This document shows, in pieces, positions 2,735 to 59,004 of a stretch of DNA of 64,000 nt (position 1 is its first letter; the number at the start of each line of letters is the position of its first letter). The stretch lies in the NCBI RefSeq assembly GCF_050920415.1, contig NZ_CP169309.1; one strand, given 5' to 3'. The stretch comes from Escherichia coli (GTDB taxonomy: Bacteria; Pseudomonadota; Gammaproteobacteria; Enterobacterales; Enterobacteriaceae). The translations under genes and the position numbers were made by a program. The notes beneath the pieces were generated by a model. The model made no database searches, was not told the DNA's origin, and saw only the letters and a list, made by a program, of their open reading frames with translations.

Positions 2735-2736
2735 TG

Positions 2737-3141: not shown

Positions 3142-3169
3142 AAAAAAAATCCCCGGCATTGCGCCGGGG
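3142..3169 (-). terminator. rho-independent terminator after the major capsid gene
   Basis: Minus strand CCCCGGCGCAATGCCGGGG hairpin followed by T8. Confidence 0.6.
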
Positions 3170-3189
3170 AGTTACAGGAAACGTTCTAA

Positions 3190-4245: not shown

Positions 4246-4260
4246 TATGTATACCTCTCG

Positions 4261-4683: not shown

Positions 4684-4686
4684 CCC

Positions 4687-5967: not shown

Positions 5968-6912
5968 TTACTCCCAATCTTCGCCATATTTAGCGTGCGC
6001 AACTTTATAGTTTTCTTGCGCCCGATTTAATATTCGTTCGTTTAATATGTTACCGTCTTCGTCAACTAATACGGTAATCGTGCTACATTTGCAGTTAATA
6101 GAATTTGGGGATCTGCTCCACCATTCGCGCTGCTCATCTATGGTGTATGTTTTCCCGTGCCGTTGCGCGTGCGATAGCCTGGTTGTCGGTGACAATGCCG
6201 AAATGTGCATTTGCATAGTGCGCAGATTAAATTCTTCTGTCGCCGCTTCTGCCTCATCCATACGCGCTGTGCGTAACGCTGTGCATATTTCAGTTCGGGC
6301 AATACGTTTGCATCTGTATAGCGGTAACTGCGTATCCTGATTCAATGTGCGCGCTATTTCCAGTGGATTTAAACCACGGGCCATGCCTTCAGTTAATCGG
6401 CGGGCCATATCCTTTTTTATCTGTGCGGTCAGACCGCGCATCTCTTCAAATACACGGGTACGCACCAGGGCAAGGCGTGTGCGGTAAGTTGTGCTGGATA
6501 GCACGGCGGATACATCAGGATAAGCGCTTGAATATGTGACAGACTGGTTAGCAAGGTTGGCGTATTCCTGCGCGGTCCCTCGCTGATATGCAACCTTCAC
6601 GTACTCCTGCCAAAACCAAAAACTTTCCGGGTCGGTTAGCTCGAATATCTCATCAATCATGTTGCTGGCATCCTCCAGCATGTCGTGCAATTCATCCATG
6701 TAAATCTGGAAGGTGTATTTCTTATTAACAGCCAGGCTATATTGTATTCTGTCCAGTATGGCGATATATGGATCGGCTATTTTCTTCAGGCAGGATTTAA
6801 AACGCTTAATAGCGCCCGACCGCAACTTACCTGTCATGGTCGGGTCTTCGGTGTTAGATGGCATTATCGCGGAGGGCGGTATTCTCCTGATTATTTTCTT
6901 CACCTTCATCAT
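5968..6912 (-). CDS. phage head morphogenesis protein (Mu F / SPP1 gp7-like)
   Basis: 314-aa ORF directly after the portal gene; true start possibly internal (table start overlaps the portal gene end). Confidence 0.4.
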   Translation of the reverse strand: MMKVKKIIRRIPPSAIMPSNTEDPTMTGKLRSGAIKRFKSCLKKIADPYIAILDRIQYSLAVNKKYTFQIYMDELHDMLEDASNMIDEIFELTDPESFWFWQEYVKVAYQRGTAQEYANLANQSVTYSSAYPDVSAVLSSTTYRTRLALVRTRVFEEMRGLTAQIKKDMARRLTEGMARGLNPLEIARTLNQDTQLPLYRCKRIARTEICTALRTARMDEAEAATEEFNLRTMQMHISALSPTTRLSHAQRHGKTYTIDEQREWWSRSPNSINCKCSTITVLVDEDGNILNERILNRAQENYKVAHAKYGEDWE

Positions 6913-8227: not shown

Positions 8228-8306
8228 AATGTTTACTCCTGAATGCATGTTTACGCGTTGCTACGCGAAAAATAGAAAAATTCGTGATGGATTTGTGAGA
8301 TGGTTT

Positions 8307-36667: not shown

Positions 36668-36897
36668 TGGATAAAACCGCGACATTGTTATTGACTACGG
36701 CACGAATAAGGGAAATGCTCGGAGGAATAAGTAGGACAACATTCAGAGTATGGAAAATGAAATGGGAAGCGGCTGGAACACCATTTCCTGAACCGCTTCA
36801 CGAATTATCAACTACGTCGCGCCCTGTATATCGTTATCAAGATGTAATGCAGTTCTTTAAGTCAGTAGGCTTGCTTTCTGATACTGATAAAACGTAA
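36664..36897 (+). CDS. AlpA/Xis-family DNA-binding protein (putative excisionase)
   Basis: 77 aa; IREMLGGISRTTFRVW...FPEP...RPVYRYQDVMQFF fits the AlpA-type HTH pattern; adjacent and convergent to the integrase. Confidence 0.55.
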   Translation: MMDKTATLLLTTARIREMLGGISRTTFRVWKMKWEAAGTPFPEPLHELSTTSRPVYRYQDVMQFFKSVGLLSDTDKT

Positions 36898-38057
36898 TTA
36901 GCCCATAATTCCGCAGCGTCTTTCTGTTCTTCTACATAATCATATCTGTCATAAACTCCTAATACTCCGCCCAGGGTATGGCCCAACATTTTTTCGGCTA
37001 CCTGGGCGGTCACGCCTAATGCCGCTAAATGCGTGCGGCACGTCCGGCGCAAATCATGCGCAGTAAAACCCGCCTTAAATCCAATTTCATTACTAAGCCT
37101 TGTCGCTAGTCTTGTGCACACAGCTTTATCCATTGGTTTACCATCCAGCGACAATACCGCAGGGAAAACTATGTCGAAGTTGTGACAATTAAACATCATG
37201 CTTAATAGCTCGACGCTTAACGTTGACAGGCCGCGCGTAAACCGCTTTTTGTTTTTGGATAGTTCCGCAGGAATATTCCATACCCTGTTATTGAGATCAA
37301 AATGTTCACGCTTTGCTAGCCTCAATTCTACCGTCCTGCATCCTGTTAATAGCAGTAGTCTGAAGAATGTCATATTGGCCTTAGACATAAAATCGCCAGT
37401 CGTAAAACGCCAGAATTCCCCTACTTCCTCGCCAGATAAATATCTGTCGATCTTGCGCGGCGGTTTGCCAACGTCTTCCACTCGCAACAAGCGGATCTCG
37501 TTGTCTTTTACTATCCCTTTCCTTTGCGCCATAGCGACAATGGATTTCATGCGTCGTAACATCGCGCCAGCCTGTACCGGATGGCCCGCTTTCGTTATCT
37601 CTGAGAATATTGCCTCCCACGCCCTTGCGTTAATGTCATCCACAATAAAATCGCCATACCTCTTGATTATGTGCTTTTGTAAGTTTTGCTTGATCTCTTT
37701 GTATCCCTTAATTTCCCTGGTCGTCTGTTTATTAAGATAGTTGTTAACGATATCGCTAACGGTTGCTCTCGCCCTCGCCTCTTCAATGCGCTGCTTCTTA
37801 GCAAGTCCGGGATCTTTGCCGTCTGCTAATATCGCCTTGCACTCAATTACCGCTAGCCTGGCTTCCTTTAGCGTCATTATGCCATAGTTGCCTAGCTTCA
37901 TTCTTTTAGGCTTCCCGTCATACCTGTAGCGATACTGAAACGTAATTACGCCTTTCGGGCTTACCCTTACTGACAGACCGCCGCCATCCGGGATCTCGAC
38001 CGGACCATCATAACTTTTACCGTGGATGCTTCTTAACTTAGTGTCAGATAACGCCAT
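36837..38057 (-). CDS. tyrosine-type site-specific integrase (P4-like)
   Basis: 406 aa; C-terminal catalytic region with HDLRRT and LGHT...Y; lies at the prophage-chromosome junction. Confidence 0.8.
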   Translation of the reverse strand: MALSDTKLRSIHGKSYDGPVEIPDGGGLSVRVSPKGVITFQYRYRYDGKPKRMKLGNYGIMTLKEARLAVIECKAILADGKDPGLAKKQRIEEARARATVSDIVNNYLNKQTTREIKGYKEIKQNLQKHIIKRYGDFIVDDINARAWEAIFSEITKAGHPVQAGAMLRRMKSIVAMAQRKGIVKDNEIRLLRVEDVGKPPRKIDRYLSGEEVGEFWRFTTGDFMSKANMTFFRLLLLTGCRTVELRLAKREHFDLNNRVWNIPAELSKNKKRFTRGLSTLSVELLSMMFNCHNFDIVFPAVLSLDGKPMDKAVCTRLATRLSNEIGFKAGFTAHDLRRTCRTHLAALGVTAQVAEKMLGHTLGGVLGVYDRYDYVEEQKDAAELWANYVLSVSESKPTDLKNCITS

Positions 38058-38404
38058 AATCGCCCCTTATTTGGTGCACAACATGGTACACAAATCATGG
38101 TTTACGCAATATAACGCAAAAGCGCGCTTGTTTACAGCGAAAACCAGTAAATCTACTAAATTCATGGCGTTAGGGGTGATTTTGCTTGCGTATGTTTACG
38201 CTTGTGCGCGGTATGTAGCATTAGAAAGAGAAATGCTGCTGACCAACAGCGCACAACACGTGACTGAAACAGAGTGCTTCATAAGTTACCCTCAAACCTG
38301 CGTTAATAATCATGCGTAATTATTTGTTTCGCCTTAAAGAAATGCAAACAACTTCCGGCAAAAAAGTGATACGAGATCGATAACATAGCGTTGAAGAAAA
38401 GGAT
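38058..38404. mobile_element. prophage right attachment junction (exact att core not determinable)
   Basis: Non-coding region between the integrase 5' end and host mpaA; no tRNA recognised. Confidence 0.35.
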
Positions 38405-42490: not shown

Positions 42491-43552
42491 TTATTTTTCG
42501 CTGGGCGTTTTGCCTTTTTGCAGCGTCTCTTTCACCTGACCGATAAGCTGACGACGGAAATCCCCGAGGCGAGGTTTGTCATCGTCAATCCACGGCAGCG
42601 GGCGGCAAAGCTCCATAGCTTTAATCCCCAGTCGTGCCGTCAGAAGTCCAGCACCAATTCCCTGAGCTGCGCGGGTAGACAAACGCGCAGCGAGATCTTG
42701 CGACATCCAGTCCATCCCCACTTCGCGCACCAATTCGCTGGCTCCGGCAAAAGCGATATTCAGCAATACCAGCTTAAACAGGCGCAAACGGCTGTAATAT
42801 CCCAGTTCAATGCCATACAGCGTGGCGATGCGATTGATCAAACGCAGATTGCGCCAGGCGATAAATGCCATATCCACCAGCGCCAGCGGGCTAACGGCGA
42901 TCATTAACGTTGATTCCGCCGCTGAGCGACTGATTTCGCGCCGCGCCTGGGCATCTAAAACCGGCTGGACCAGATGAGCATACAGGCTGACCACTTCACG
43001 ATCGTTCTGCGTTTCATGGATTGAGGCATACCAGCGTTGCAGTGCCGGATGCGACTGGTCGATGCCCGCCTGCTGCGCCAGTTTTTCGCAGAATGCACGG
43101 CCTTTACCCGTGCCGTGGCTGTGCAACAAATCGCGCGCTTCGTCGCGTTCATGGGCGCGCTGTCGCAAGCGCCATAAGCGCCGCCACTCTGTTACCACAG
43201 AACCTACGCCAGCGCCGATAATCAATGCCCCAGCGGCACAGCCGCCCAGGGCCACCCAGTCCTGAGTTTGCCAGGCGTTCATCGTCCACTGCACACCCTG
43301 ACCAACAACGCTTGCACCAAACAGAGCCAACCCGCCCATCACCATTTTGCGCCACAGGCTGCGTTTCGGACGTAACGCTGCGTCCATCACCGCTTCAACT
43401 TGCCCCTCTTCTTCCTGCGCTTCGTCGAGCGTGGCCGGGGCAAAATTTTGCGCCTGATTTTCGTCAAAGGTCTGCTGCGCCCTGAATTTTGGATTCTGAT
43501 CGACCTCCAGTGGACCGTCGAAATCAATACGTGGTTTTAACGGTTCGGTCAT
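42491..43552 (-). CDS. ycjF: UPF0283 inner membrane protein YcjF
   Basis: 353 aa; conserved partner of ycjX. Confidence 0.8.
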
Positions 43553-44946
43553 CGCAATTTATCTCCTATTAAAAATTCCAGCGCAGCATCAAGGCGAATA
43601 TGCGGCAACGGTTTGTCGACATCCATTACCTGCGGGCGAAACGCCTCAAACTGGAAGCCTTGCTTATCCCAGAACGCCTGGCCAGGCAAACGTGCGGGAA
43701 CTTCGCCAGGATACACAGTGAGCGGTGCGCCATCGCTGAGTCGATTACCGCGCAGCGCCGGGATTTTCTCACCGTTAACATCAATAATGCCGCTGGTGGT
43801 CGCCTGAACTGACGCCAGCCCCAGGCAGTCCATGCTGATCCCTTCGAACGCCGCATTTTGCCAGGCATCCTGAATCAGTTGTTGCAGTAATGAAACCATA
43901 TTGGCGTGCTGATCGATGGTCACATGATCCGCTTTAGTGGCAGCAAACAATAGCTTATCGATAACCGGCGAAAACAAGCGCCGGAACAAGGTACGCTGCC
44001 CGTAGTGGAAGCTTTGCATCAGCTGCGTCAGCGCCAGACGCATATCATTGAATGCTTGTGGTCCACTGTTGAGAGGTTGCAGGCAATCCACCAGCACAAT
44101 CTGCCGATCAAAGCGCAGAAAATGATTTTTATAGAATCCCTTCACCACTTTCTCGCAGTAATAATTAAATCGTTCGCGCAGCATTCCGGCATTGGTGTGC
44201 TTGTCGGCTTGTGCTAGTTTTGATTCGCCCCAGGCATCGACATCTGGCCACGGGAAGAATTGCAGCGCGGGCGCACCTGCCATATCGCCCGGCAAGACAA
44301 AACGCCCAGGCTGAATAAAGTGCAGCCCCTGCTGTTTGCAGTGGTGGAGATAATCGGTCCATGCGGCAGCAATGTCTGCAAGACGGTTTTCGTCGGCAGG
44401 TGCTAGTGGGTCCAGCCCTTCGCACATCATTCGCCATTTTGCCGACCATTCGCCGCGCTGACCATTGAGTAAGCCCGTCATCTGGCGCGACCAGCTTAAA
44501 TAGTCCTGCGCCAACATCGGCAAGTCGAGTAACCATTCGCCAGGATAATCCACTATCTCCAGATACAACGTGGAAGTGTCTTTGAAGTGACGCAACAGCG
44601 AATCGTTCGATTTATAGCGTAGCGCCAGGCGAATCTCACTGACGCCGCGTGTTGGGGTTGGCCAGGCGGGAGGATCGCCATATAACTGCGCCAGCCCTTC
44701 ATCGTAGGTGAAGCGCGGAATGCCAAAGTCACGCTGGGGAATGCGTTTTACGCCCAGCAGGCGCTCTTCACGCACCGCACTTAATAGCGGCAAGCGTGCT
44801 CCGGCATGAATATTGAGCAACTGATTGACCATCGCAGTGATAAACGCGGTTTTGCCGCTGCGGCTAAGTCCGGTTACAGCGAGGCGCAGATGTCTGTCGA
44901 CACCCCGATTCACCAGCGCATTAAGTTCATTTTTAAGTCGCTTCAT
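43549..44946 (-). CDS. ycjX: P-loop NTPase YcjX
   Basis: About 465 aa from MKRLKNELN; Walker A GLSRSGKT. Confidence 0.8.
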
Positions 44947-45090
44947 TGCTGTCCTGTGGACCAGAAAAAAATCATTCGTAAGGATATGAATGTGGGGGCC
45001 ATGCCCTTGATTATCAACTGCCCGTGTTGTCATCTTGAGGCGAACTCCATAAGATGTGCAGCATTCACGTTCGGACGGAGTTCCTGACCT

Positions 45091-46089
45091 ATGTCCCCTA
45101 CTATTTATGATATTGCCAGGGTTGCCGGCGTATCAAAATCCACCGTATCACGCGTGCTGAATAAGCAAACCAATATCTCCCCGGAAGCGCGCGAAAAAGT
45201 GTTACGGGCCATTGAAGAATTACAGTATCAGCCAAATAAACTGGCCCGCGCGCTGACCTCTTCGGGCTTTGATGCCATTATGGTGATTTCTACCCGCTCG
45301 ACCAAAACTACGGCGGGTAACCCGTTTTTCTCCGAAGTTTTGCATGCCATTACCGCCAAAGCGGAAGATGAGGGTTTCGACGTGATATTGCAGACGTCGC
45401 ACAACCCGGCTGAAGACTTACAAAAATGTGAAAGCAAAATTAAGCAGAAAATGATTAAAGGCATTATTATGCTAAGTTCGCCAGCAGATGAGTCTTTTTT
45501 CGCCCAACTCGATAAATACGATATTCCGGTGGTAGTAATTGGCAAAGTTGAAGGTGAATATGCCCATGTTTATTCTGTCGATACCGATAATTTTGGCGAC
45601 AGTATTGCGCTGACCGATGCATTAATTGAAAGTGGACATAAAAATATTGCCTGCCTGCATGCTCCGCTTGATGTTCATGTTTCGGTTGATCGCGTTAATG
45701 GCTATAAGCAAAGTCTGGAAGATCATAATATTGCAGTGCGCAGTGAGTGGATCGTTGACGGCGGTTATACCCATGAGACAGCATTAAAAGCCGCACGGCA
45801 ATTATTAAGTCAGTCACCGTTGCCTGAGGCAGTGTTTGCTACTGACAGCCTGAAATTAATGAGCATTTATCGTGCGGCGGCAGAGAAAAACATTGCTATT
45901 CCGCAGCAGTTAGCGGTGGTGGGTTATAGTAATGAAACGCTGTCGTTTATATTAACGCCTGCACCGGGCGGCATCGATGTTCCGACGCAGGAGTTAGGTC
46001 AACAAAGCTGCGAGTTATTATTCCGCTTAATTGCCGGAAAACCGTCACCACAAAATATTACCGTTGCCACGCATATGTCGTTGAAATAA
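45091..46089 (+). CDS. ycjW: LacI-family transcriptional regulator YcjW
   Basis: 332 aa; N-terminal LacI HTH ([21 protein letters not shown]). Confidence 0.85.
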
Positions 46090-46109
46090 ATGCCAGCTAC
46101 GTTGCCTGA

Positions 46110-46186
46110 ATGCCGGATGCGATGCTGGCGCATCTTATCCGGCCTACATTTATAAACCGGATAAAGTACTCGCGCCGCATCCGGCA
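46110..46186. repeat. REP/BIME-type extragenic palindromes
   Basis: GCCGGATGCGATGCTGGCGCATCTTATCCGGCC and CGCGCCGCATCCGGCA copies. Confidence 0.55.
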
Positions 46187-46199
46187 ATTTAGCACATTA

Positions 46200-47105
46200 T
46201 CAGAACGCGTAATTCACACCGACACCTGCATAATGGAATTTATCGCTGTCGCCTTCATCGTGATCCTGCCACTCAAACGCGTATTCCAGCGAAACGGAAA
46301 GACCATTCTGGAAATCATAACCGTAAAACAAACCAAGACGGTTAAAATCATGGCCTTCACGTTCGATATCATCCTGCCAGTCCCAGTTACTCCAGCGATC
46401 CAACCCAATGCGCGTATACGGTGTTACCGAGTGATTGCCGAGCGTCAGCGGTAAATAGGCGCGAATTTCTTGCGTGGAGAATTCACCGTTATTGCGGCTG
46501 TCGTCCATATTGAAGCCGCGCTCGAGATAATAGTTCACCCGCAAGGCAACCGTTTCGTTGAAGGTATATTGCAGACCCGTTTCCGTTTCGACACGGGTAT
46601 CAGCATAACCGGTCGTATTCAGATCGTTGGCAAATTTATACATCGACAGCCAACCGTTGAAACGTAAATCGTCAGTCAGTTTCACATCCCAGTCTGGCGC
46701 GATTTTCCAGCGCTGCATATTTGCCGTGTCTTTACCCGGTTCATCAACGTAGTGATAACCATAGTTACGGAAACCACCGGTCAGGCCGAAACTGAAATCA
46801 TCGCTTTCGAGAAACTGATAATGCACTTCCAGTTCCGGGCGATCAAACCAGGTTCCACGTTTACCCGCGCTATAATCTACCGGCCCTTCCTGGTAATAAG
46901 CCAGCGATATTCTCCACGGCCCATTGGCAGCATTAAAATAGACGGAAGGCTCCGCCAGCCCGTCCATATCTTCGCCATAACCCTCAACGTTTTCTATTTC
47001 GTACATCGCGCCGATATTAAAGTGCCAGTCTTTTTTTTCCTCAGCCTGTGCGCAGGCCATTCCCGCACACATCACCAGTGCGGTACAGGGTAATAACTTT
47101 TTCAT
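46200..47105 (-). CDS. ompG: outer membrane porin OmpG
   Basis: 301 aa with signal peptide; matches OmpG. Confidence 0.9.
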   Translation of the reverse strand: MKKLLPCTALVMCAGMACAQAEEKKDWHFNIGAMYEIENVEGYGEDMDGLAEPSVYFNAANGPWRISLAYYQEGPVDYSAGKRGTWFDRPELEVHYQFLESDDFSFGLTGGFRNYGYHYVDEPGKDTANMQRWKIAPDWDVKLTDDLRFNGWLSMYKFANDLNTTGYADTRVETETGLQYTFNETVALRVNYYLERGFNMDDSRNNGEFSTQEIRAYLPLTLGNHSVTPYTRIGLDRWSNWDWQDDIEREGHDFNRLGLFYGYDFQNGLSVSLEYAFEWQDHDEGDSDKFHYAGVGVNYAF

Positions 47106-47149
47106 TATTGTTCCTTGTATTATCCTGGGGGAATGCCTTCCCCCTGTAT

Positions 47150-48232
47150 TTAGCGAATTGCTATTTCCGTTTCTGCATCAAAGAAATGACATTTGGTCAT
47201 ATCAAAATGAATAGTGACGTTTTCTCCTGCATGATAATCATTTAACGCACCGGCACGGACCACCAGCTCGTGCCCCCCAACCGTGGTGTAGAGCATAAAT
47301 TCCGCACCGGTTAATTCCGCCACGCTAATTTTGGCGGAAATGTTATTTTCCTCTTGCGCATCCGGATGAATATCCTCCGGGCGTATTCCCATCACGATGG
47401 GTTTATGCAAACTTTCCTGCGTTTTCAGAACGGCTAATTTATCTTCGGGAATGGTTAATTTAAGCGTTTCCGTAACGAATTTATCGCCATCGATCGTGCC
47501 GCGAATAAAATTCATTGCTGGTGACCCAATAAATCCGGCAACAAACATATTCGCCGGTTGGTTATAGACCGTTTTCGGCGCACCGACCTGCTGAACAATC
47601 CCATCCTTCATAATGACAATCCGCGTCGCCATGGTCATCGCTTCGGTCTGATCGTGGGTCACGTAGATCATGGTGGTGTTCAGTTTCTGATGCAGCTTGC
47701 TGATTTCCGCGCGCATTTGTACGCGCAGCTTGGCATCCAGGTTAGAGAGCGGTTCATCCATCAAAAACACGCCCGCTTCACGCACAATCGCCCGTCCGAG
47801 CGCCACACGCTGGCGTTGCCCGCCGGAAAGCGCCCCCGGCTTGCGTTTCAGGTACTCACGCAGGCCGAGGATTTGCGCCGCCCAGTTAACCCGCTCATCA
47901 ATCACCTCTTTGGCGATTTTTTGCATCTTCAGGCCAAACGCCATGTTGTCGTAGACCGTCATATGCGGATACAGCGCGTAGTTCTGGAAAACCATCGCAA
48001 TATTGCGCGCTTTGGCCGGAACGTCATTCATTCGTTTGCCGTCGATCAACAGATCGCCGCCGCTGATCTCCTCAAGCCCGGCAATCATACGCAGCGTCGT
48101 CGATTTACCGCAGCCCGACGGACCGACAAACACGATGAACTCTTTATCGGCAATCTCCAGGTTGAAGTCCTTCACCACATGCACCTGGTTATCGTAGATC
48201 TTTTGAATATGTTGTAACGAAAGCTGTGCCAT
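47150..48232 (-). CDS. ycjV: ABC transporter ATP-binding protein YcjV (intact)
   Basis: 360 aa; Walker A GPSGCGKST, signature LSGGQRQR; MalK-like. Confidence 0.85.
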   Translation of the reverse strand: MAQLSLQHIQKIYDNQVHVVKDFNLEIADKEFIVFVGPSGCGKSTTLRMIAGLEEISGGDLLIDGKRMNDVPAKARNIAMVFQNYALYPHMTVYDNMAFGLKMQKIAKEVIDERVNWAAQILGLREYLKRKPGALSGGQRQRVALGRAIVREAGVFLMDEPLSNLDAKLRVQMRAEISKLHQKLNTTMIYVTHDQTEAMTMATRIVIMKDGIVQQVGAPKTVYNQPANMFVAGFIGSPAMNFIRGTIDGDKFVTETLKLTIPEDKLAVLKTQESLHKPIVMGIRPEDIHPDAQEENNISAKISVAELTGAEFMLYTTVGGHELVVRAGALNDYHAGENVTIHFDMTKCHFFDAETEIAIR

Positions 48233-48245
48233 GTTGATTCCTTTG

Positions 48246-48905
48246 CTATACGTTTTGCCAGAAGGCCGATAACCGCGGCCAGGTCAGAGATTCCGTTGAG
48301 GGCAGCAACAGTTGCGCCCCGGTTAAGCTCGTGCCGATCCCCACCGAGCGCATACCGCTGGCGTTAATGGCGTCAATGCCCGCCTGCGCATCTTCAATGC
48401 CAATGCAGGCCTGTGGAGGCACGCCCAGCCCGGCACAGGCGGCGAGAAAGATTTCCGGATCCGGTTTCGAGTGTTTAAGTTGGGAAGCGTCCGCGCAGAA
48501 GGTGAAAAACTCGCGCAGCTCCAGCGCCGCTAAAATTGTTGGGGCATTCAGAGAGACGGAGGCCAGCCCTACCGGGATGCCTTGCGCCCGAAGATCTGCC
48601 AGCAAAGGCCGAATTCCCGGCAGAACAGCGTTAACCGTCAGTTCGCGCAGTGAGTGGACGTAGAGCAGATTTTTGCGATACGCCAGTTGCGCCCGCTCTT
48701 GCACGTTAAAGTCGCCCTCTTTGCCCCCGTGTTGCAGAATGCGCCGCAGGGACTCATCGCGGCTGATCCCTTTTAACGTCTCGTTAAATTGCGCATCGAT
48801 GCTGATGCCGATTTCGGCGGCAATCTGCTGCCATGCCTGGAAGTGCAGATGTGCGGTGTCGGTGATCACGCCATCCAGATCGAAAATTACCCCTTGTAGT
48901 TTCAT
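48246..48905 (-). CDS. ycjU: beta-phosphoglucomutase
   Basis: 219 aa; HAD motif [10 protein letters not shown]. Confidence 0.85.
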
Positions 48906-51169
48906 TCATCCTCCTGATGTTTGGTAGCGGTCCCATTGAAGGGCAAAATAAAATCACCCAAACAGAAAACAGATTCTTCAGTCACGGAAATAAGCTGACC
49001 GTTCAACCGCATTGAAACGGGCGCAGAAGTTCGAATCGCAATACGCTGCGCGTCGAGAGTGACCTGTAATTCGCAGCCCTGCCAGAACAAAGGGAAAGAT
49101 AACTGTTGCCACTGCTCAGGTAACGCTGGGTTCAGATGTAATTCGCCGTCGCGCACGCTGACTCCGGCAAAACCCTGAATCGCCCCCAGCCAGATAGCGC
49201 CAGTTGCGGCGGCATGGATACCGTCATCGCAGCTATGCGGATCAGCACCAAGATCGATTTCACTCCCCTCGCGCCAGAACGGGTAACTCTGCGCAAGCAA
49301 GCCACAACGCGCGGCAACAATGCCGTGGATCGCTTTACTCAATGACGAGTCGTGAATGGTGCGCGGTTCATAAAATTGCAGATTGGCGAGACAAGAGGCC
49401 GCTGAAAATTGTTCTGGTAGCATGTAATTGAGCATCACCACATCGGCCTGCTTGAGGATCTGCATCTCGTTCACTTCTGCGCGTGAATAATCCAGCAGAA
49501 TGGTTTGTTTGCCTGCCGCCGCTTTGTATTTCGCCAGATCTATCGCCGGTTTCGCCATAAACGAATCATCCTGCGGCAAAACGCCGTCGGGCTGAATTTC
49601 TGGCATCCACAGCTCTTTGAGGAACATGTCGGCACGATGAATAAACGCATCGTCGCTACAGCCAAACTGGCGAGCAATATTCAGTGCCTGTTGGACGTTG
49701 TAGCAGGCCATATAACTTGTGTATGCGTTATTGTTAACGTGTTCGGTATATTCGTCTGGCCCAATAACATCATGAATTTCCAGACGATCGTTAACCCTTA
49801 CCGCGCGGCTAATCCAGAACTTTGCGGTCTCCAGCAGTAGCGCCATGCCTTCGTGAGCAACGAAGCTTTCATCCCCCGTTACCTGCCAGTATTGAATAAC
49901 CGCCCAGGCGATATCGGCAACCAGATGATGTTCCGCCTGCGCTGAGGCCACTTTTTGCCGTAGCCCGGTACGAATGTTTATGGCGGCAAATTCCGGGGTC
50001 TCTTCTTCGCCGCTGCGTGCGCTTTCCCACGGAAATAGCGCGCCCTGCCAGCCATTGCGTCGCGCTTTCTCCTGCGCCCCCGGTAAGTTGTGCCAGCGAT
50101 AGCGCAGCAAACTCCGGGCAATCGTCGGTTCGCTAAACAGATGGAACGGCAGCAGGAACACTTCCGTATCCCAGAAAACATGGCCTTTGTAGCCTTCCCC
50201 GGTTAAGGCTTTTGCCGCAATGCTGCTACGCTCGTCGTGGGCGGGCGTCATAATACGCAAATGATAAAGCGCATAGTCTAACGCCCGCTGATCGTGCGTA
50301 TCGCAACTCTTTACCGTGATACGACGTTTCTGCCACCATTGCTGCCAGTTTTCTGTCGATGCTGCAAGAAGTTGGTCATAACTCTGTTGTGTACACATTT
50401 CAAGCTGGCGAAGCGACGCACTGCCCCACTCGTCTAAAGCGGCTTGTCGGTCATCCCGCCAGTCAATCCACACCCGCTTTTGCAAGGTCAGTGTTTCACC
50501 TGTGCGAAGTTGCGCGCTGGTATGTTGCAGCAAACGGCGCTCTTTGGCGGTATAGCACTGCTGAACGTCACCACTCGCCTGACAGTGACAACTGATTGCC
50601 ACATCACTGCGCCCATCCTGGGTGGTGTAGATCCCCTGCATCAAATGCTGACCAAACACCCGGACCTGGGTTTCATCCAGATGCTGGCGACCGTGGTTGG
50701 TTTGCGTGGCGTTAATGCCTGTTGAGATCAGCACTGATGCCTCGGCGTCCAGCGGGGTAATACTGATTTCCAGCGCGATCAGCGGCAGTTGATCTGTCGA
50801 AACAAAACGACGACTTGCAAGGGTAAACCGTGCGCCGTCGCTGCTGCGCCAGATAACACTGCGGCGTAATTCTCCACTGGCAAAGTCAAGCTCACGCTGC
50901 CACGCTTCGCGGGATAACGAAAAAATCTCGCCGTTTAGGGTAATTTCCATTCCCACCACGTCTGGCAGATTCACCAGTTCGTTGATTTCTCCTTTCCCGG
51001 CTCGATGATAAAGCCCTGCCAGATACATGCCGCGCGTCTGCCGCGTGTAATCTTCTTCATGGCTGGCACGAAGCCCAAGATAGCCGTTCCCCTGCGCCAT
51101 TAATGAGGCATATTTATTCAGGGTATGCTGGCTGAATTGGGGTTCCGTTAATGTTACTGGCCTGGTCAT
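48902..51169 (-). CDS. ycjT: kojibiose phosphorylase (GH65)
   Basis: 755 aa; conserved ycj operon position. Confidence 0.85.
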
Positions 51170-52221
51170 AATTCCACACGCATCCCTGTTTCTGCGGATT
51201 GATACAGCGCCGCCACCAGTTGCTGGATGATGTACCCTTGCTCGGCGTCGGCAATCATCACAGGCTTGCCCTGTACGTGATTGATAAAGGCTTCCATGCT
51301 GCGCAAATGACGGTTGTCGTCGGCCAGTTCCCGTTGCATCAGCGTCATTAATTCACCGTTGTTATCGGTGTAGATATGCGCCGGAAACAGCGTGGCTCCC
51401 GCTTTATCGCCGCAAAAGCTGACGTTCATCATCGACTGTTCGCGGATGTTGAGTGCAAATGATGTCTCCAGCAAAAGAATGCCGCCGTTATGAAATTCAA
51501 TGGTGCCAAACAGCGAATCTTCGACGCTGTAGGTTGCCGGGTCCCACTCACCAAATTGACCACAGCTCTTTTGAGTACCTATTTTCTGAAAGCTGTGCGC
51601 CGTGACGCTTTTCACCGCCGGAAAGCCCAGCACATACATCGCGGCATCCAGCATATGAATGCCAATGTCGATCAGCGGGCCGCCACCCTGCAGTTCTTTA
51701 TTGGTAAAGACACCCCAGCCGGGAACGCCGCAGCGACGCAGGGCGCGGGCGGTCGTGACGTAAATCTCACCCAAAACGCCGTTGGTCACCTGTTCACGCA
51801 ATTGTTGCGTATCAAGGGCAAAACGATGGTGAAAGTCGTAGGCCAGCACCTTGCCCCGTTTGCGCGCGGTATCACACATCTCCCGCGCCTGTTCTGGTGT
51901 CATGGCGGGCGGTTTCTCGCACATCACATGGCAGCCTGCCTCCAGCGCCATCAGGGTATGCTCGTAATGAAAACGGTTAGGTGAACAGACGCTTACCACG
52001 TCAGGTTTTACCGCCAGCAGCATGGCCTGCGGATCGTCCCACACGGATGCGTTCCCGTATTTCTCTGCCAACGCCTGCGCCTGGGAAAGGCGGCTGTCAC
52101 AGACAGCCACCAGTTCCAGATCGTTGCGGGTGCAGTAGTACGAAGCATGAACCTTATCCGCCACCTGGCCCGCGCCTATTATCGCGACCCGCAGCGGAGA
52201 GCTTGTCATTGCACTTTTCAC
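51166..52221 (-). CDS. ycjS: Gfo/Idh/MocA-family sugar dehydrogenase
   Basis: 351 aa; N-terminal Rossmann motif VAIIGAGQVA. Confidence 0.85.
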   Translation of the reverse strand: MKSAMTSSPLRVAIIGAGQVADKVHASYYCTRNDLELVAVCDSRLSQAQALAEKYGNASVWDDPQAMLLAVKPDVVSVCSPNRFHYEHTLMALEAGCHVMCEKPPAMTPEQAREMCDTARKRGKVLAYDFHHRFALDTQQLREQVTNGVLGEIYVTTARALRRCGVPGWGVFTNKELQGGGPLIDIGIHMLDAAMYVLGFPAVKSVTAHSFQKIGTQKSCGQFGEWDPATYSVEDSLFGTIEFHNGGILLLETSFALNIREQSMMNVSFCGDKAGATLFPAHIYTDNNGELMTLMQRELADDNRHLRSMEAFINHVQGKPVMIADAEQGYIIQQLVAALYQSAETGMRVEL

Positions 52222-52230
52222 AAAGACCTC

Positions 52231-53019
52231 TTAGCAGGTGCGCAACCAGGCCAAAGAATCACGGTACGCCTGAGCAGGATCTTCTGCCCGAATGCGCCCT
52301 TCATACACCACATAGCCCTGATAGTTATCGGCGCGCAGCTGTTCAAACAGCGCGTGGAAATCGAGGGTGCCGCTGCCCGGCTGATAGCGATGGTTATCGG
52401 CAATATGCACATGACCAAGCAGGTCACGGTTGTCATGCAGCGCCTGCGCCAGGTTATCCTCTTCGATGTTCATGTGATAGAAATCGCCGATAATCTGCAC
52501 ATGTTTAAGGTTGTTTTCGACGATGTAACGACGAGCATCGGCGAGCGTGTTGATCATGTGGTCCTGATAGCGGTTTAGCGGTTCGAGATACACCACCGTT
52601 CCGGTACGCGCGGCCACCTTTTCCAGGAAACGCAGGGAATCGCTCACCATTTGACGATCGCCGTCCAGGCTGCGCGGTGAGGTCATCGGCGGTAAGCGGA
52701 AGGTAAACATGCCCCACGCAGCCGGAACGACAATACCTTTACCGCCCACTTCCGCCAGCGCCTCAAGAATGCGCTCGATCTGCTTTAAACCATTAAGACG
52801 ACGCTCTTCGATAAAGTCGCCAATCCAGCCGTCATAGCCGCCGCAGGCGGTGGTCACCGGTAAACCGGTTTCTTTGATCGCTGCTTTGACTTCTTCGAGA
52901 TTGTTGACCAGCAGTTTGCCGTCAATCTCAAAACCATCAAAACCCATCTCTTTGATATAACGAAATTTCTCCAGAATATTTTCCGGAAAGAAGGCCTGAT
53001 TCTGTGTGCCGATTTTCAT
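52231..53019 (-). CDS. ycjR: sugar-phosphate isomerase/epimerase (xylose-isomerase-like TIM barrel)
   Basis: 262 aa; conserved operon position. Confidence 0.85.
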   Translation of the reverse strand: MKIGTQNQAFFPENILEKFRYIKEMGFDGFEIDGKLLVNNLEEVKAAIKETGLPVTTACGGYDGWIGDFIEERRLNGLKQIERILEALAEVGGKGIVVPAAWGMFTFRLPPMTSPRSLDGDRQMVSDSLRFLEKVAARTGTVVYLEPLNRYQDHMINTLADARRYIVENNLKHVQIIGDFYHMNIEEDNLAQALHDNRDLLGHVHIADNHRYQPGSGTLDFHALFEQLRADNYQGYVVYEGRIRAEDPAQAYRDSLAWLRTC

Positions 53020-53035
53020 TTTTCCGTCCTTAGAA

Positions 53036-54088
53036 TTAAAAAGTTACGCCCATTTTGATGCTCTGTTCCGGATGCTGGTCGACATACTGCATGTAGCTTT
53101 CCGGGCTGTTAGCAAAGGTCACCACCGGGTCGATTAAATCTTCACAATTGAGATAACCGTTCATCAGCAGTTCCCAGCAGGTTTCTTCAATACGCTTGCG
53201 GCTCCAGCGCGGATAATCCGGGTTCGGTTCACTGCACGCACGAGAGAAGACAATTTTGGCGTTGTTGAAATGCGCTTCGCGTCCGAGGTTAAAACCTTCG
53301 GCAAATGGTTTGGCAAATGCGACATACGAGATGGTGCCGCCATAAGCCAGGCCGCGCAGTGCCGATTGCAGCGCGTCGGCGTAGCCGCTGGTTTCGATAA
53401 TCACATCGGCACCCTGCTTGCCGGTCAGCGTTTTAATCTCTTTGCCTACATCCGTGCCAATGGGGTTAAGGCAGAAATCCGCCCCGTGGCGACGGGCAAT
53501 ATCACAGCGATGAGCGATAGGATCGACACCAATCACCACCGACGCGCCAGCGCGTTTTGCCAGTTGAATGGCAATTTGACCAATCGCGCCAAGCCCGACT
53601 ACCACCACAAAATCGCCCACACGCACGTTGGCATCGCGCACGCCGCTCATGGCAAACTGCGCCGGGTCGTAACAGACGGCGTTTTTCCACGAGCTACCTT
53701 GCGGCATTTTGCGCAGTTTGTAGTTATTCACCGCGTTAATGATGACCGTTTCGGAAAGCGGGCCGTAGCCGCATACGCTGTCGCCCACCGCGTAGTCGGT
53801 AACCTCGCTGCCGCACTCGATAATGTCGCCAACCACCATGTTGCCAAGCTGGAACTTGCCAAACTCAATGCCGCGCGGCGCATCTGCCGGACGGGGGGTG
53901 AACATCTGCCATTCGCCATTAAAGTCTTCATTAATAAACGGGCTGGCGGCGCGGAAATCGACCACTTCCGTCCCGTGTTTCGGCGCGCCGAACCGCACGC
54001 GGATCTTCACTTCATTGGCTGAAATCGCCCTGTCTTCATACTCCACCAACGCGGCAACGCGCGGTGCTGTGGCTACTAACTTTTTCAT
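53036..54088 (-). CDS. ycjQ: zinc-type alcohol/sugar dehydrogenase
   Basis: 350 aa; MDR family GLGAIGQ NAD-binding motif. Confidence 0.85.
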   Translation of the reverse strand: MKKLVATAPRVAALVEYEDRAISANEVKIRVRFGAPKHGTEVVDFRAASPFINEDFNGEWQMFTPRPADAPRGIEFGKFQLGNMVVGDIIECGSEVTDYAVGDSVCGYGPLSETVIINAVNNYKLRKMPQGSSWKNAVCYDPAQFAMSGVRDANVRVGDFVVVVGLGAIGQIAIQLAKRAGASVVIGVDPIAHRCDIARRHGADFCLNPIGTDVGKEIKTLTGKQGADVIIETSGYADALQSALRGLAYGGTISYVAFAKPFAEGFNLGREAHFNNAKIVFSRACSEPNPDYPRWSRKRIEETCWELLMNGYLNCEDLIDPVVTFANSPESYMQYVDQHPEQSIKMGVTF

Positions 54089-54118
54089 GTAAAACTCCTT
54101 GTCAAGAAACTGGCCGCT

Positions 54119-54961
54119 TTAGCCCTTCACGCCACCGGCGGTCAAACCACTCTTAATAAAACGTTCCGAAAGTGCATACATAATCACCACCGGCAATGCG
54201 GTCACCAGCGAGGCCGCCATCATTCGGCCCCAGATGTAATCAGGGGTACTGAACAGCGCGTTCAGGCCTACCGGTAAAGTGAAATTGCTGGCGCTGGAGA
54301 GGAAAATCGAGGCAAACAGATAGTCGTTCCACGCCACCATAAAGCAGTAGACGAACACGGATATCAGCCCGGACATCGCCAGCGGTACCGTGATGCGGAA
54401 GATGATTTGCAGCCGGTTGAGGCCATCCATCATCGCCGCTTCTTCGATTTCATCGGGGATGGTGTCGAAGTAGCTTTTCAGCATAAACACAGCGGTAGGC
54501 AGGGTTTGCGTCACCATGGTGATGATCAGCGCCATCTCGGTGTCATAAACGCCAAGCGCGGTGATGATTTTGAACAGCGGCACCACCAGCAAAATGCCGG
54601 AGAACATGTACACCGTGTAAAAGCTGGCGTTGATGGTCATTCGCCCTTTAAAGCGCAGGCGGGAAAGCGCGTAAGCCCCGAGAATGCCGAGAAATACTGC
54701 TATCACGGATGAAACTACCGACACCACCAGGCTGTTACGGAAATAATCGACAAACGGGAAAATCACCGGGTTAAAAATGTCGACGTAATGCTCCAGCGTC
54801 CACTGCTGTGGCAGCAGCGTAGGATGCAGCGAGATCGCCTCTTTCGCGCTTTTGAACGAGGTCATCAGCATCACAAAAAAGGGAAACAGCGTGATGATGA
54901 GAAACAGCGCCAGCCCGCAGTAAAAACCGATGCGACTGAGTGTGCGTTTATTTGTTGCCAT
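54119..54961 (-). CDS. ycjP: ABC transporter permease
   Basis: 280 aa; MalG-like multi-TM permease. Confidence 0.85.
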   Translation of the reverse strand: MATNKRTLSRIGFYCGLALFLIITLFPFFVMLMTSFKSAKEAISLHPTLLPQQWTLEHYVDIFNPVIFPFVDYFRNSLVVSVVSSVIAVFLGILGAYALSRLRFKGRMTINASFYTVYMFSGILLVVPLFKIITALGVYDTEMALIITMVTQTLPTAVFMLKSYFDTIPDEIEEAAMMDGLNRLQIIFRITVPLAMSGLISVFVYCFMVAWNDYLFASIFLSSASNFTLPVGLNALFSTPDYIWGRMMAASLVTALPVVIMYALSERFIKSGLTAGGVKG

Positions 54962-55829
54962 TGAGGTTCACCCGTTTTCTGGTCAGCAGAATGACAGCGA
55001 AAATAATGATGAAGAGCACCACTGAGATCGCCGCCGCTTTCCCTAAGTCATTAAAGGCAAAGGCGGTTTTGTAGAGATAGACGCCGAGAATATCGACCTT
55101 GGTCGTCAGCAAATAAACGTCAGCGAACATGTAGAACATCCAGATGGTACGCAGAGTCACCACCGTCGCCAGGACCGGCATAATCGCGGGCAGCGTGACG
55201 ATGCGAAACCGTTGCCAGGCATTCGCGCCGTCCATCTCTGCCGCTTCGTACAGCGATTTATCAATGGTCTGCAAAATCGCCAGAAACGAGATAAAGGCAT
55301 ACGGGAAGTAGCGCCAGATGGCGAACAGCACCACCAGCACAAAACTACTGCCCGGGTTATCGAACCACAGCGGCGCCTGCTCATAGAGATGCAGAAGATC
55401 GACGCCGAGGTAGTTCACAATGCCGTAGCCGTTGTTGAACATGTATTTCCAGGCGAACACCAGCGAAATGGACGGCGTTACGTAGGAGAGGATTACCAAC
55501 GAACGCGCGGTTTTGCGCAGGCGAAACTCGCGGTTGAAAAACATCGCCACCGCCAGGCCGAGCACGGTGCTACCTGCCACCACCAGCGCGGTATACCAGA
55601 CCGTCATCCACAGCGAGTGCCAGAAGCCGGGATCGGAGAGAATACGCACATAGTTGCTCACCCCAACAAACGTTGCCTCGATGTTGGGATTGAGCGGCAG
55701 ACGTAAAAAACTAATTTCGATATTCGACACCATTGGCCACGCCACCAGACCGCCCAGCAGTAATAAGCTGGGCGCGAGAAGCAGCAGCGCAAAGGGCATA
55801 TCGGAACGACCTGAAAAAAGCCTGTTCAT
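54948..55829 (-). CDS. ycjO: ABC transporter permease
   Basis: 293 aa; MalF-like permease. Confidence 0.85.
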   Translation of the reverse strand: MNRLFSGRSDMPFALLLLAPSLLLLGGLVAWPMVSNIEISFLRLPLNPNIEATFVGVSNYVRILSDPGFWHSLWMTVWYTALVVAGSTVLGLAVAMFFNREFRLRKTARSLVILSYVTPSISLVFAWKYMFNNGYGIVNYLGVDLLHLYEQAPLWFDNPGSSFVLVVLFAIWRYFPYAFISFLAILQTIDKSLYEAAEMDGANAWQRFRIVTLPAIMPVLATVVTLRTIWMFYMFADVYLLTTKVDILGVYLYKTAFAFNDLGKAAAISVVLFIIIFAVILLTRKRVNLNGNK

Positions 55830-55849
55830 TGCGGATTCCTGTCCTGGGA

Positions 55850-57142
55850 TTAGTGCTGTTCGATCAGTTCATCCAGCTTTTTCTGGCTCGCTTGCAGCGT
55901 GGTTGAGAGATCGGCTTTCCCCACGGTGACGTTATGCACCATTGAACTCACCACACCAGACCCCGTCACATCGCCCATGCGGGTAAAGTTTTTGTCCCCT
56001 ACCGCACCAAAGACCTGAATGTTTGGCAGTTCGCTAATCAACTGATTCGGCAAGTCTCCCAGCGCCTTAATCACGTCGTTATCTTTCCAGGTGGCAGTCG
56101 TCACAACCGCTTTGTTCACCGGCAGCGCCGCGCCTGGCGACATCATCACCCAGTCGGCAATGTTGTCCGCCTGCTCCATAAAGGTGACAAATTTTTCTGC
56201 CGCTTCCGTCTCTTCGCTCTTTTGCCCGGCGGTAATGGTCAGCGAGGTCAACATGCCGTAGACCGCCGAGTTTTTCTCGGTTGGCACCACGAAACCGACA
56301 TTTTTCGGGTCACCTTCTTTAATCACAGCCGGAAGGATATAGGTGGAGTAAATCGCCATCGGCGCGGTGCCGTTCATAAAGGCGTCTTTCACTTCCATAA
56401 TGTCGTTAGAACCCGGCATGGTGTTGGCAGCAAGGTCGCGGTAATAGGTCAGCGCCTGCATCATCTCCGGCGTATCAAGGGTGATTTTGCCTTCGGCGTT
56501 AAAAACGTTGGCCTGATTGGATAACGCAAACTGAGAGAACGATTGTTCCGTCAGTACGCTTTCTGCCGTCGGCAGTGCAATACCGTATTTTTTATTCGCC
56601 GGATCGTTCAGTTTCTGTGCGACATCCAGCAACTGTTGCCAGTTTTTCGGCTCATCCAGCCCGGCTTTTGCCAGCACATCTTTGCGATACCAGATACCGC
56701 CAATCCATGCGCTGACAGGAACACCGGTCCAGGCGCTACCATCTTCGGTGCGCACAATCCGCAGAACGCCGTCATAAAACGCGCCTTCACCGACATTACT
56801 GATGACCGTAGCAACCGCTTTGCGATCGATAAGCTGTTCTTTGTCCATCACTTTCGCGTAGTCATGGCTGGTTTCGATCACTTCCGGCAGCGAGCCGCTA
56901 CGGGAAAGGGTGATGACTTTGGTGTTATAGGCATCTTCTTCCACCGGCACTTGTTTAACAGTGATGCCTGGGTTTTCTTTTTCAAAACGCGCAATTAAAT
57001 GACTAATTACCGCCTGGCGTTCCTGTTCCACCGAAGAATGCATAAACTCGATGGAAACATTCGTTTTATTTTCTTCTTTACAACCTGAAATCAGGGCGCA
57101 GGAAACCAGTGCTGATAACAGCACGATTTTTGATTTAATCAT
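55850..57142 (-). CDS. ycjN: ABC transporter periplasmic sugar-binding protein
   Basis: 430 aa with signal peptide/lipobox-like N-terminus. Confidence 0.85.
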   Translation of the reverse strand: MIKSKIVLLSALVSCALISGCKEENKTNVSIEFMHSSVEQERQAVISHLIARFEKENPGITVKQVPVEEDAYNTKVITLSRSGSLPEVIETSHDYAKVMDKEQLIDRKAVATVISNVGEGAFYDGVLRIVRTEDGSAWTGVPVSAWIGGIWYRKDVLAKAGLDEPKNWQQLLDVAQKLNDPANKKYGIALPTAESVLTEQSFSQFALSNQANVFNAEGKITLDTPEMMQALTYYRDLAANTMPGSNDIMEVKDAFMNGTAPMAIYSTYILPAVIKEGDPKNVGFVVPTEKNSAVYGMLTSLTITAGQKSEETEAAEKFVTFMEQADNIADWVMMSPGAALPVNKAVVTTATWKDNDVIKALGDLPNQLISELPNIQVFGAVGDKNFTRMGDVTGSGVVSSMVHNVTVGKADLSTTLQASQKKLDELIEQH

Positions 57143-57155
57143 GAGATGTTCCTTT

Positions 57156-58835
57156 TTATTTAATCCACATAACCTGCCAGGGGCGCAGCGTTATTTCATT
57201 ATCCACTATATCAACTTCACTAATCAGATCCCGACCGTGCAGGTCAGTAATATTTATATGCAGAATATTTTCACTGACATTAAACAACCCCGTCAGACAA
57301 TCACCAGTTGCAGTGCTTCTTCGAATACGCATTACAGATGAATTAACCGTATCGATGGTAAAACTATTATCCGGATGAAATTCTTTATGCCGGCGACGAA
57401 GCGTAATTAAATGCGACAACTGATGATATACTGCGTGCCTGAGTGTCGTTTCATCGTTCAGTTCACTGGCTATCTCTTCACTACGATATTTCTTACGGTT
57501 AATCGCACGGTTATATCCCGGCTTTTCGACACCAGCGTAATCATTACGTGAACCCAGAATACTTTGAATATAGACAGCAGGCACACCGGGAAAGGTTAAC
57601 AATATGGCATGAGCAAGAATAAACCGGGCACAGCGTTCTTCGTCACTGCAATCGCGATGGCTCAATGCGTCCATGTAGGTCACATTCATTTCATACGGAC
57701 TGCGCGTACCATCGGGATTATTTTTCCAGTTTACTAATGCCCCTTCCTGCTGTAACGCCTCGACTAGCGCTAATATCTCGCTTTCAGGCAACAAGCCTCG
57801 CAGTGGGTTAAGTCCAATACCATCATGAGACGCGAGGAAGTTAAACCAGGTGGTTTTGCTGGAAGGCAACGTCAGACTTTGCGCCCACTGGCACAGCGCC
57901 TGGACGTTCTGTTTTTGCACCGCATGTAACACCAGCGGCGGCAGTGAGAACTGGTACACCATATGCGCTTCGTCATCGCCGTTGCCAAAGTAAGCAATGT
58001 TGTCTTTATGCGGGACATTGGTCTCAGTAATGATGACCGTCCCCGGCGCGACGCTGTCAGTAATGGCGCGTAACAGTTTGATAATTTGATGTGTTTTATC
58101 CAGGTGGATGCAACTCGTTCCCGGCTCTTTCCACATAAAGCCAACGGCATCCAGACGGACATACTCTGCGCCTTTTTCCAGGTAACACATCAGCACATCT
58201 ACCATCGCCAGTAATACATCTGGGCTGCGATAATTGAGGTCAATTTGATCGTCGCTAAAGGTCGTCCATAAATGGCGCATTGAATTATCGTGCATTTTAA
58301 ACGGCGTTAATAAGGGTAACGCGCGTGGGCGAGTGACGGCGCTAAGATCGGTTTGCGGGTCAACAGCAATGAAAAAGTCTTCAAAGCCTGGCTTTTGTTG
58401 TAAATAGTTTTTAAACCATTCACTTTTAGCCGACATGTGGTTGCAGACAAAATCAAACATTAAATGACTGCATTCACCGAGTTGCTGAATATCCTGCCAC
58501 TCCCCCGCTTCACTGGCGACCTGATGATAATCAATTACCGAAAAGCCATCATCAGATGACCATGGATAAAACGGCAATAAATGAACATGTGAAAAAATGC
58601 TTTGCAGCCAGTGATGGTAAAACTGATTAAATGTGGGTAGTGGTTTTAAATCATTACTGTGAAATTGATCGGCATAGGTAATTAACACGACATCACTTTC
58701 ATCCCAGTGTTTTTTACGTCGCTGTGTAATTAATCTTTTCGCACTCTCAAGACGCGTTACAAGTTTCTGTAAATGAGTCGCGGTAAATGTTCCACCGTAG
58801 ATTTCGTCCAGGTAATCCGTAATTTTCTGTTTCAT
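57156..58835 (-). CDS. ycjM: sucrose-phosphorylase-family glycoside phosphorylase
   Basis: About 559 aa from MKQKITDYLDEIYG; GH13_18-like. Confidence 0.8.
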   Translation of the reverse strand: MKQKITDYLDEIYGGTFTATHLQKLVTRLESAKRLITQRRKKHWDESDVVLITYADQFHSNDLKPLPTFNQFYHHWLQSIFSHVHLLPFYPWSSDDGFSVIDYHQVASEAGEWQDIQQLGECSHLMFDFVCNHMSAKSEWFKNYLQQKPGFEDFFIAVDPQTDLSAVTRPRALPLLTPFKMHDNSMRHLWTTFSDDQIDLNYRSPDVLLAMVDVLMCYLEKGAEYVRLDAVGFMWKEPGTSCIHLDKTHQIIKLLRAITDSVAPGTVIITETNVPHKDNIAYFGNGDDEAHMVYQFSLPPLVLHAVQKQNVQALCQWAQSLTLPSSKTTWFNFLASHDGIGLNPLRGLLPESEILALVEALQQEGALVNWKNNPDGTRSPYEMNVTYMDALSHRDCSDEERCARFILAHAILLTFPGVPAVYIQSILGSRNDYAGVEKPGYNRAINRKKYRSEEIASELNDETTLRHAVYHQLSHLITLRRRHKEFHPDNSFTIDTVNSSVMRIRRSTATGDCLTGLFNVSENILHINITDLHGRDLISEVDIVDNEITLRPWQVMWIK

Positions 58836-59004
58836 GTTGCCTTTCCGTGGTAGCGGTCCCATGAGACGAGAGACTACTCCGCAGAAAATAAACTGTCAAT
58901 TGAGCACAAGGGTTTTAGTCACGCAGGAAATCATTTTTTACCAGGGAAAAAGCGTATTTGTGAACTGACGCAAATAATCTATGGGGATGTAAATAAGGTG
59001 TGAC

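Follow-up and report, generated by a model that had tools for sequence, protein, structure and literature searches.

A full-length ycjV gene in a divergent Escherichia coli ycj locus, and the one-base lesion that sets K-12 apart

In Escherichia coli, the ycj genes from ycjM to ycjV, together with ompG, are repressed by YcjW, for which two ChIP-seq peaks have been described, one upstream of ycjM (where binding was also seen by EMSA) and the other between ycjT and ycjU (PMC6599011). The operon is tightly repressed under laboratory conditions (PMC6599011). [quoted passage not shown] In a published thermal-shift assay, none of the sugars tried, kojibiose and maltose among them, gave a shift of the lipoprotein YcjN. 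As to the ATPase, E. coli YcjV (WP_000057985.1) is a stable protein that hydrolyses ATP (PMC7658222). Papers on the cluster call YcjV the transporter's ATPase and work on K-12 sequences or strains, and neither 'frameshift' nor 'pseudogene' occurs in those that we searched, which included the ones on YcjN structure and YcjN transport. That K-12 ycjV is a pseudogene is nevertheless already known, as it stands in the reference annotation, and strain engineers have made use of 'the pseudogene ycjV locus' for (neutral) integration (PMC10380740).

Here we describe ycjV in a 64,000-nt stretch of an E. coli genome (contig NZ_CP169309.1 of assembly GCF_050920415.1; hereafter, the window). We consider the feature to be the wild-type, full-length ycjV orthologue, encoding the ATPase subunit of a type I carbohydrate ABC importer (CUT1, MalK/MsmX kind) and intact because E. 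coli ancestrally and for the most part has it so, K-12 being the exception, and put the probability of this reading at roughly 90%. The open reading frame runs on the minus strand from an ATG at 48232 to a TAA at 47150-47152 (1083 nt, 360 aa). Only 13 nt separate it from ycjU, and within this spacer an AAGGAA motif, probably serving as the ribosome-binding site, ends 5 nt 5′ of the start codon (features and coordinates are collected in Table 1). Three Pfam domains were found above their curated cut-offs, namely ABC_tran (PF00005) at residues 21-162 (E 1.2e-31; 110.5 bits against a cut-off of 25), OB_MalK at residues 236-288 (E 1.8e-14) and TOBE_2 at residues 282-351 (E 1e-10). All six motifs of an ABC nucleotide-binding domain (NBD) are present in canonical order, and the NBD is followed by an OB_MalK plus TOBE regulatory domain of the kind, about 120 residues in length, that is expected at the C-terminus of CUT1 ATPases. 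The context is likewise that of a CUT1 system, with two BPD_transp_1 permeases carrying EAA motifs and the SBP_bac_1 protein YcjN encoded nearby. Since the exact protein sequence recurs in more than 970 public contigs as well, the window ORF is a real gene, far beyond chance. The earlier note on this DNA, made from the letters alone, had described a full-length 360-aa ATPase with Walker A, signature and Walker B motifs; a single 360-codon frame was indeed found, on the minus strand (which the note had left unsaid), and to the three motifs, all located, are added the Q-loop, D-loop and H-loop. Plus-strand ORFs antisense to ycjV, such as the one at 47558-48217 (219 aa), were set aside as presumed mirror-frame by-products of the ycjV frame.

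Table 1 Features of the ycjV gene, the ycj cluster and the adjoining prophage, in window coordinates
Feature	Position	Strand	Basis
ycjV CDS, predicted nucleotide-binding subunit of the YcjNOP-V ABC importer	47150..48232	minus	ORF, Pfam, motifs and synteny
AAGGAA, Shine-Dalgarno-like	48238..48243	minus	read from sequence; RBS function inferred
YcjV Walker A, GPSGCGKS	aa 37-44 (48101-48124)	minus	located in sequence
YcjV Q-loop, VFQ	aa 81-83 (Q83)		located in sequence
YcjV signature, LSGGQ	aa 135-139 (47816-47830)	minus	located in sequence
YcjV Walker B, VFLMDE with catalytic Glu	aa 155-160 (47753-47770)	minus	located in sequence
YcjV D-loop, SNLD	aa 163-166		located in sequence
YcjV H-loop, VTHD	aa 191-194 (H193)		located in sequence
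G6 homopolymer (C6 on plus strand), gene nt 955-960, codons 319-320; one G is missing here in K-12 (-1 frameshift)	47273..47278	minus	alignment with K-12
Hairpin GGGGGAA-GGCA-TTCCCCC, 7 bp, G+C-rich, in the 44-nt ycjV-ompG spacer	47127..47144	minus	fold dG -13.6 kcal/mol, z -2.45
ycjW, LacI-family repressor of the cluster	45091..46089	plus	ORF, annotation of identical sequence, PMC6599011
ompG, monomeric outer-membrane porin, last operon gene	46200..47105	minus	Porin_OmpG, E 3e-98
ycjU / pgmB, beta-phosphoglucomutase	48246..48905	minus	ORF, HAD hydrolase Pfam, identical MFDS1022581 annotation
ycjT, GH65 phosphorylase (kojibiose phosphorylase in K-12)	48902..51169	minus	Glyco_hydro_65 N/m/C domains
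Second putative YcjW operator, TGGGACCGCTACCA, ycjT/ycjU junction, upstream of ycjU-ycjV-ompG	48922..48935	minus	exact match
ycjS, ycjR, ycjQ (dehydrogenase, TIM-barrel epimerase, dehydrogenase)	51166..54088	minus	Pfam GFO_IDH_MocA, AP_endonuc_2, ADH_zinc_N; intact
ycjP and ycjO, two permease subunits	54119..55829	minus	BPD_transp_1, EAA loops
ycjN, lipoprotein substrate-binding protein	55850..57142	minus	SBP_bac_1
ycjM, GH13-type sugar phosphorylase (glucosylglycerate phosphorylase in K-12)	57156..58835	minus	alpha-amylase catalytic domain
Putative YcjW operator, 14-bp LacI-type palindrome TGGGACCGCTACCA, 13 nt 5′ of ycjM start	58848..58861	minus	exact match
Prophage portal	6857-8248		
Prophage terminase	8310-9791		
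Prophage DnaB-like helicase	32934-34352		
Prophage integrase	36840-38057		

Among the NCBIfam models, YcjV passes the UgpC-type subfamily model NF008653 over its full length (484.5 bits against a cut-off of 432), a model that is subfamily-level rather than an equivalog, and does not reach the MalK equivalog model NF008233 (430.3 bits against 568). Because its genomic context is ycj, not ugpBAEC, the gene is not ugpC itself; judged by its sequence, the protein is MalK-like in predicted mechanism, yet not MalK proper.

The position in the order pgmB-ycjV-ompG-ycjW and a near-identical sequence from end to end identify the gene as the orthologue of K-12 ycjV. In the MG1655 reference (NC_000913.3), ycjV (b1318, 1380821-1381789) and ymjB (b4524, 1381789-1381902) are both labelled pseudogenes, and PGAP flags ycjV in a K-12 derivative as 'frameshifted'. 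Aligned with MG1655 ycjV plus ymjB, the window gene gives 1083 columns at 94.9% nucleotide identity with one gap, the sole length difference being GGGGGG in the window versus GGGGG in K-12 (NC_000913.3 1381775-1381779). With its G6 tract at gene nt 955-960, the window allele keeps the 360-codon frame unbroken; after the deletion, the K-12 frame ends in TTVGGTS and a stop, which yields a 322-aa product. The statement in the earlier note that ycjV is disrupted in K-12, for which alignment had been proposed as the check, was thus accurate: the annotation is that of a pseudogene, a 1-bp deletion brings a stop after 322 codons, and K-12, missing a G in the G6 run, is not equally intact. Restoring this G in silico yields a K-12 protein that is identical to that of the window at 357 of 360 residues and is the same as WP_000057985.1, the two differing from the window protein only by A232 (S in K-12), D264 (E) and V339 (I). 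That the 54 nucleotide differences from repaired K-12 change only these 3 amino acids argues for strong purifying selection on YcjV and for a recent lesion in K-12.

As the intact reading hinges on a single base within a G run, the type of site where long-read assemblies err, we considered whether the window gene might merely look intact through an assembly error at the homopolymer. A census of the tract was made by exact-match probes against 5,426 complete E. coli genomes, with counts given as matching records. A G6 42-mer spanning the tract was found exactly in 4448 records and a G5 41-mer in 371, and an 80-mer with the K-12 flanking haplotype but with G6 matched 4377; the roughly 160 remaining records have SNPs inside the probe, so that their tract length falls outside the count. 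Intact ycjV is hence the species norm, present in about nine of ten E. coli genomes, and the K-12 gene is the majority haplotype minus one G. By name, nearly all G5 records are K-12 laboratory derivatives, as judged from the first 60 listed of the 371. G5 also occurs in the assemblies of three non-K-12 wild isolates (95-3192, 2014C-3051 and 08-00022), where ycjV is annotated as 'frameshifted' (577-1658 of each extracted locus) and the alleles differ from MG1655 by 15, 21 and 5 SNPs, respectively. In these three, the tract may have slipped anew, recombination may have spread the lesion or, in line with an assembly error, long-read assemblies may have misread the homopolymer; since the flanking haplotype of G5 is that of the species majority, it says nothing on whether the lesion arose once or repeatedly. 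Against an artefact in the window stand the G6 tract in those 4448 independent records, the conservation at the protein level of the frame 3′ of the tract, and the genome MFDS1022581, assembled independently, whose ycjV is 100% identical to the window gene. We accordingly regard an assembly artefact as extremely improbable.

A smaller sample of 11 genomes, taken as an even spread over the hit list, gave the same picture at the protein level, with a 360-aa YcjV and G6 in all 11 and with 3-7 residues different from the window protein. D264 and V339 of the window protein were seen in none of the 11, and the DNA allele of the window is rare, with only two complete genomes carrying ycjV at 99% identity or more.

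With the loss of one G from the G6 tract, K-12 YcjV is cut at residue 322. The residues thus lost, 321-360, amount to about half of TOBE_2, and the ATPase domain stays whole. We infer that the 322-aa product has lost its function, complete ATPase domain notwithstanding. One may argue instead that the shortened protein still energises the transporter, such that intactness would make no functional difference from K-12: the frameshift at codon 320 falls well past ABC_tran (residues 21-162) and OB_MalK, and transport-related phenotypes have been reported in a K-12 study of ycjN. However, the missing half of TOBE_2 (282-351) belongs to a beta-barrel that is integral to the MsmX and MalK structures, the gene is entered as a pseudogene in the reference annotation, and neither the account of MG1655 on kojibiose minimal medium, as cited from Mukherjee 2018, nor the failure of ycjW deletion to help in kojibiose-supplemented rich defined medium (PMC6599011) speaks for a working transporter in that strain. 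We therefore deem an active 322-aa product unlikely.

The gene sits in a cluster whose order on the minus strand, ycjM-N-O-P-Q-R-S-T-U(pgmB)-V-ompG with ycjW divergent, agrees with that of MFDS1022581 and MG1655. All 12 cluster genes have the lengths of their MG1655 counterparts and are free of internal stops. The EAA loop of YcjO is canonical (EAAEMDGANAWQRFRIVTLP at residue 195), YcjP has an EAA-like loop (EAAMMDG... at residue 174), and the N-terminus of YcjN is a lipoprotein-type signal ending in a lipobox-like LISGC. Two exact copies of a 14-mer with a central CG, TGGGACCGCTACCA, occur in the window, the first of them 5′ of ycjM and the second where ycjT and ycjU meet. This 14-mer was deduced from the window sequence itself rather than from the figure in PMC6599011, and its presence at both published ChIP positions makes the assignment as putative YcjW operator a safe one. 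The region around the copy upstream of ycjM shows few differences from MG1655, plus a 1-nt length difference. Lying downstream of this operator-type palindrome, ycjV falls within the YcjW regulon, and the copy at the ycjT/ycjU junction implies separate YcjW control of ycjU-ycjV-ompG. The ycjM promoter, which YcjW represses, would drive transcription of ycjV, probably together with the second YcjW-controlled site just 5′ of ycjU. With 12 full-length genes and both operator 14-mers in place, the ycj locus of the window is genetically complete; the suggestion of the earlier note that the locus may be 'fully functional' is upheld in this genetic sense only.

Beyond the operators, the hairpin in the spacer between ycjV and ompG (Table 1), identical in MG1655 and two other strains and with no T-run on the coding strand, is a candidate for a role in mRNA processing, stability or attenuation before ompG. 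It was the only notable element in a promoter and terminator scan of 45000-49000, which otherwise returned hits at the level of the shuffled background (6 versus 5.2 expected and 6 versus 5.4), and neither Rfam families nor tRNAs were found anywhere in the window. Between ycjW and ompG (46090-46200) we also noted a REP-like palindromic sequence, with spurious small ORFs on both strands (e.g., MPDAMLAHLIRP...).

How might the full-length protein work? Modelled on MalFGK2, a YcjV homodimer would bind the permeases YcjO and YcjP at their EAA loops and sandwich two ATP via the Walker A and signature motifs, and its hydrolysis cycle would drive the import of a sugar that has passed OmpG and is handed over by the lipoprotein YcjN. 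Cohesion of the dimer would depend on the C-terminal OB/TOBE domain, which may also take regulatory input. By the same analogy, YcjNOP-V is likely a sugar transporter, be its substrate kojibiose or otherwise.

Given the tight repression of the operon, an intact ycjV need not give a phenotype. Indeed, the gene could be intact yet cryptic—silenced by YcjW, with a true inducer or substrate other than kojibiose and with no detectable gain over K-12 under ordinary conditions—in which case 'fully functional' would be an overstatement. Massive up-regulation upon ycjW deletion indicates that the operon is normally off (PMC6599011), YcjN did not bind kojibiose, and several lineages live with a damaged ycjM, ycjN or ycjQ, which suggests that the cluster is dispensable in some niches. 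Yet YcjV, YcjO, YcjP and YcjN retain 98.6-99.7% amino acid identity against 92.6-96.5% at the nucleotide level, arguing for continued selection for function, and all 12 genes are kept in eight of the 11 sampled genomes. We thus view a cryptic locus as a real possibility, albeit not the favored one; the assignment of the gene as a wild-type ATPase subunit is the reading that we retain.

The stretch from ycjX to ycjM (43549-58835) represents a rare, deeply divergent ycj allele. Nucleotide identity to MG1655 is 89.5-90.5% for ycjM, ycjT and ycjU, compared with 97-98% for the adjacent psp genes. Most of this divergence is synonymous, the exception being the two phosphorylases (ycjM, 89.5% nucleotide and 91.4% amino acid identity to MG1655; ycjT, 90.2% and 93.7%). 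In 3189 complete-genome records, identity to the window ycjT is only 80-90%, as is identity to the window ycjM in 4468, and differences of 3-7% across the ycj region are seen in ordinary phylogroups, too. An old recombination import or balancing selection are candidate explanations for this allele.

In three of the 11 sampled genomes, ycj genes carried flagged lesions. O157:H7 3384 has a ycjM frameshift and an internal stop in ycjN (2898-5882 of the extracted locus), the UPEC strain MS7163 (B2) an internal stop in ycjQ (7643-8695 of the extracted locus), and the river isolate KKo009 a ycjN frameshift (2090-3381 of the extracted locus); no ycj gene was flagged in the other eight. This suggests that the ycj pathway decays repeatedly, lineage by lineage.

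We also noted differences between the window and related genomes at its other end. From 38214 to 64000, the window is collinear with MFDS1022581 at 99.98% identity (4 mismatches); collinearity over the entire window was ruled out, positions 1-38213 being a prophage. This prophage belongs to the mEp021/MagusPhagus group (86-89.5% identity over most of 1-25000), and its junction (~38214-38224) lies ~60-69 nt into mppA, of which only a 5′ stub remains, adjoining mpaA. The otherwise near-identical MFDS1022581 is without the mppA prophage, and related prophages occupy the same mppA site in O157:H7 LSU61 and in GF66.2. In both the window and MFDS1022581, mppA directly adjoins mpaA (intergenic 38283-38404), and in those sampled genomes where the extracted stretch extends as far as mppA, the two are separated by ~3-4 kb with an SDR-oxidoreductase gene, ycjY and pgrR. 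The segment with these three genes is missing in the window lineage, the result of a lineage-specific deletion or rearrangement.

In itself, the finding of an intact ycjV in the window is correct but ordinary and carries little weight; its practical value is as a caution on work with K-12. The hunt for the YcjNOP-V substrate may have been confounded, unnoticed, by the K-12 lesion, and the reported non-growth of MG1655 on kojibiose (Mukherjee 2018, in the account of PMC6599011), taken together with this lesion, means that a substrate search needs a strain with an intact locus or a repaired G tract. We would go further only tentatively, with a proposal that we consider doubtful at present: the one-base loss in K-12 may explain why MG1655 does not use kojibiose and why the YcjNOP-V substrate has been elusive, with ycj being a locus of repeated lineage-specific decay (ycjV in K-12, ycjM and ycjN in O157:H7 3384, ycjQ in a B2 UPEC strain, ycjN in a river isolate) and the G6 tract a recurrent slippage site, given G5 on three other alleles. 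If this were true, a strain with an intact locus, such as that of the window, or a repaired MG1655 would reveal the physiological substrate of YcjNOP-V.

Among proteins of solved structure, YcjV aligns best, and from end to end, with Bacillus subtilis MsmX (PDB 6YIR; 360 versus 365 residues, E 1.2e-148), with which it shares the architecture of an NBD followed by a regulatory domain; MalK, SugC and AlgS structures also align end to end, slightly more weakly. MsmX is a 'multitask' ATPase, and this kinship, with 64% identity compared to 45% for MalK (PMC7658222), raises the question of whether YcjV, too, is shared and serves other CUT1 permease pairs besides or instead of YcjOP. Several differences argue otherwise. 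MsmX serves several permease pairs from an orphan gene, whereas ycjV lies inside the operon of its own transporter; YcjV does not take over the role of MsmX in B. subtilis (PMC7658222); and the charged residues that multitask ATPases have in common (D77, R104, E110 and K154 in MsmX numbering) are missing from YcjV (PMC7658222). A shared role for YcjV therefore seems improbable to us, and a dedicated subunit of its own importer remains the preferred assignment. With E. coli MalK (PDB 1Q12, 2R6G), YcjV has in common the six NBD motifs, the OB_MalK/TOBE domain and partner permeases with EAA loops, and it differs in sequence (~45% identity; PMC7658222), in operon and in regulator (MalT for MalK, YcjW for YcjV). 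The nearest relative is K-12 YcjV (b1318/b4524) itself, encoded at the same locus between ycjU/pgmB and ompG and identical in all motifs, which departs from the window gene by a G5 in place of its G6 tract, and whose intact form, WP_000057985.1, is found in the B lineage and many other strains.
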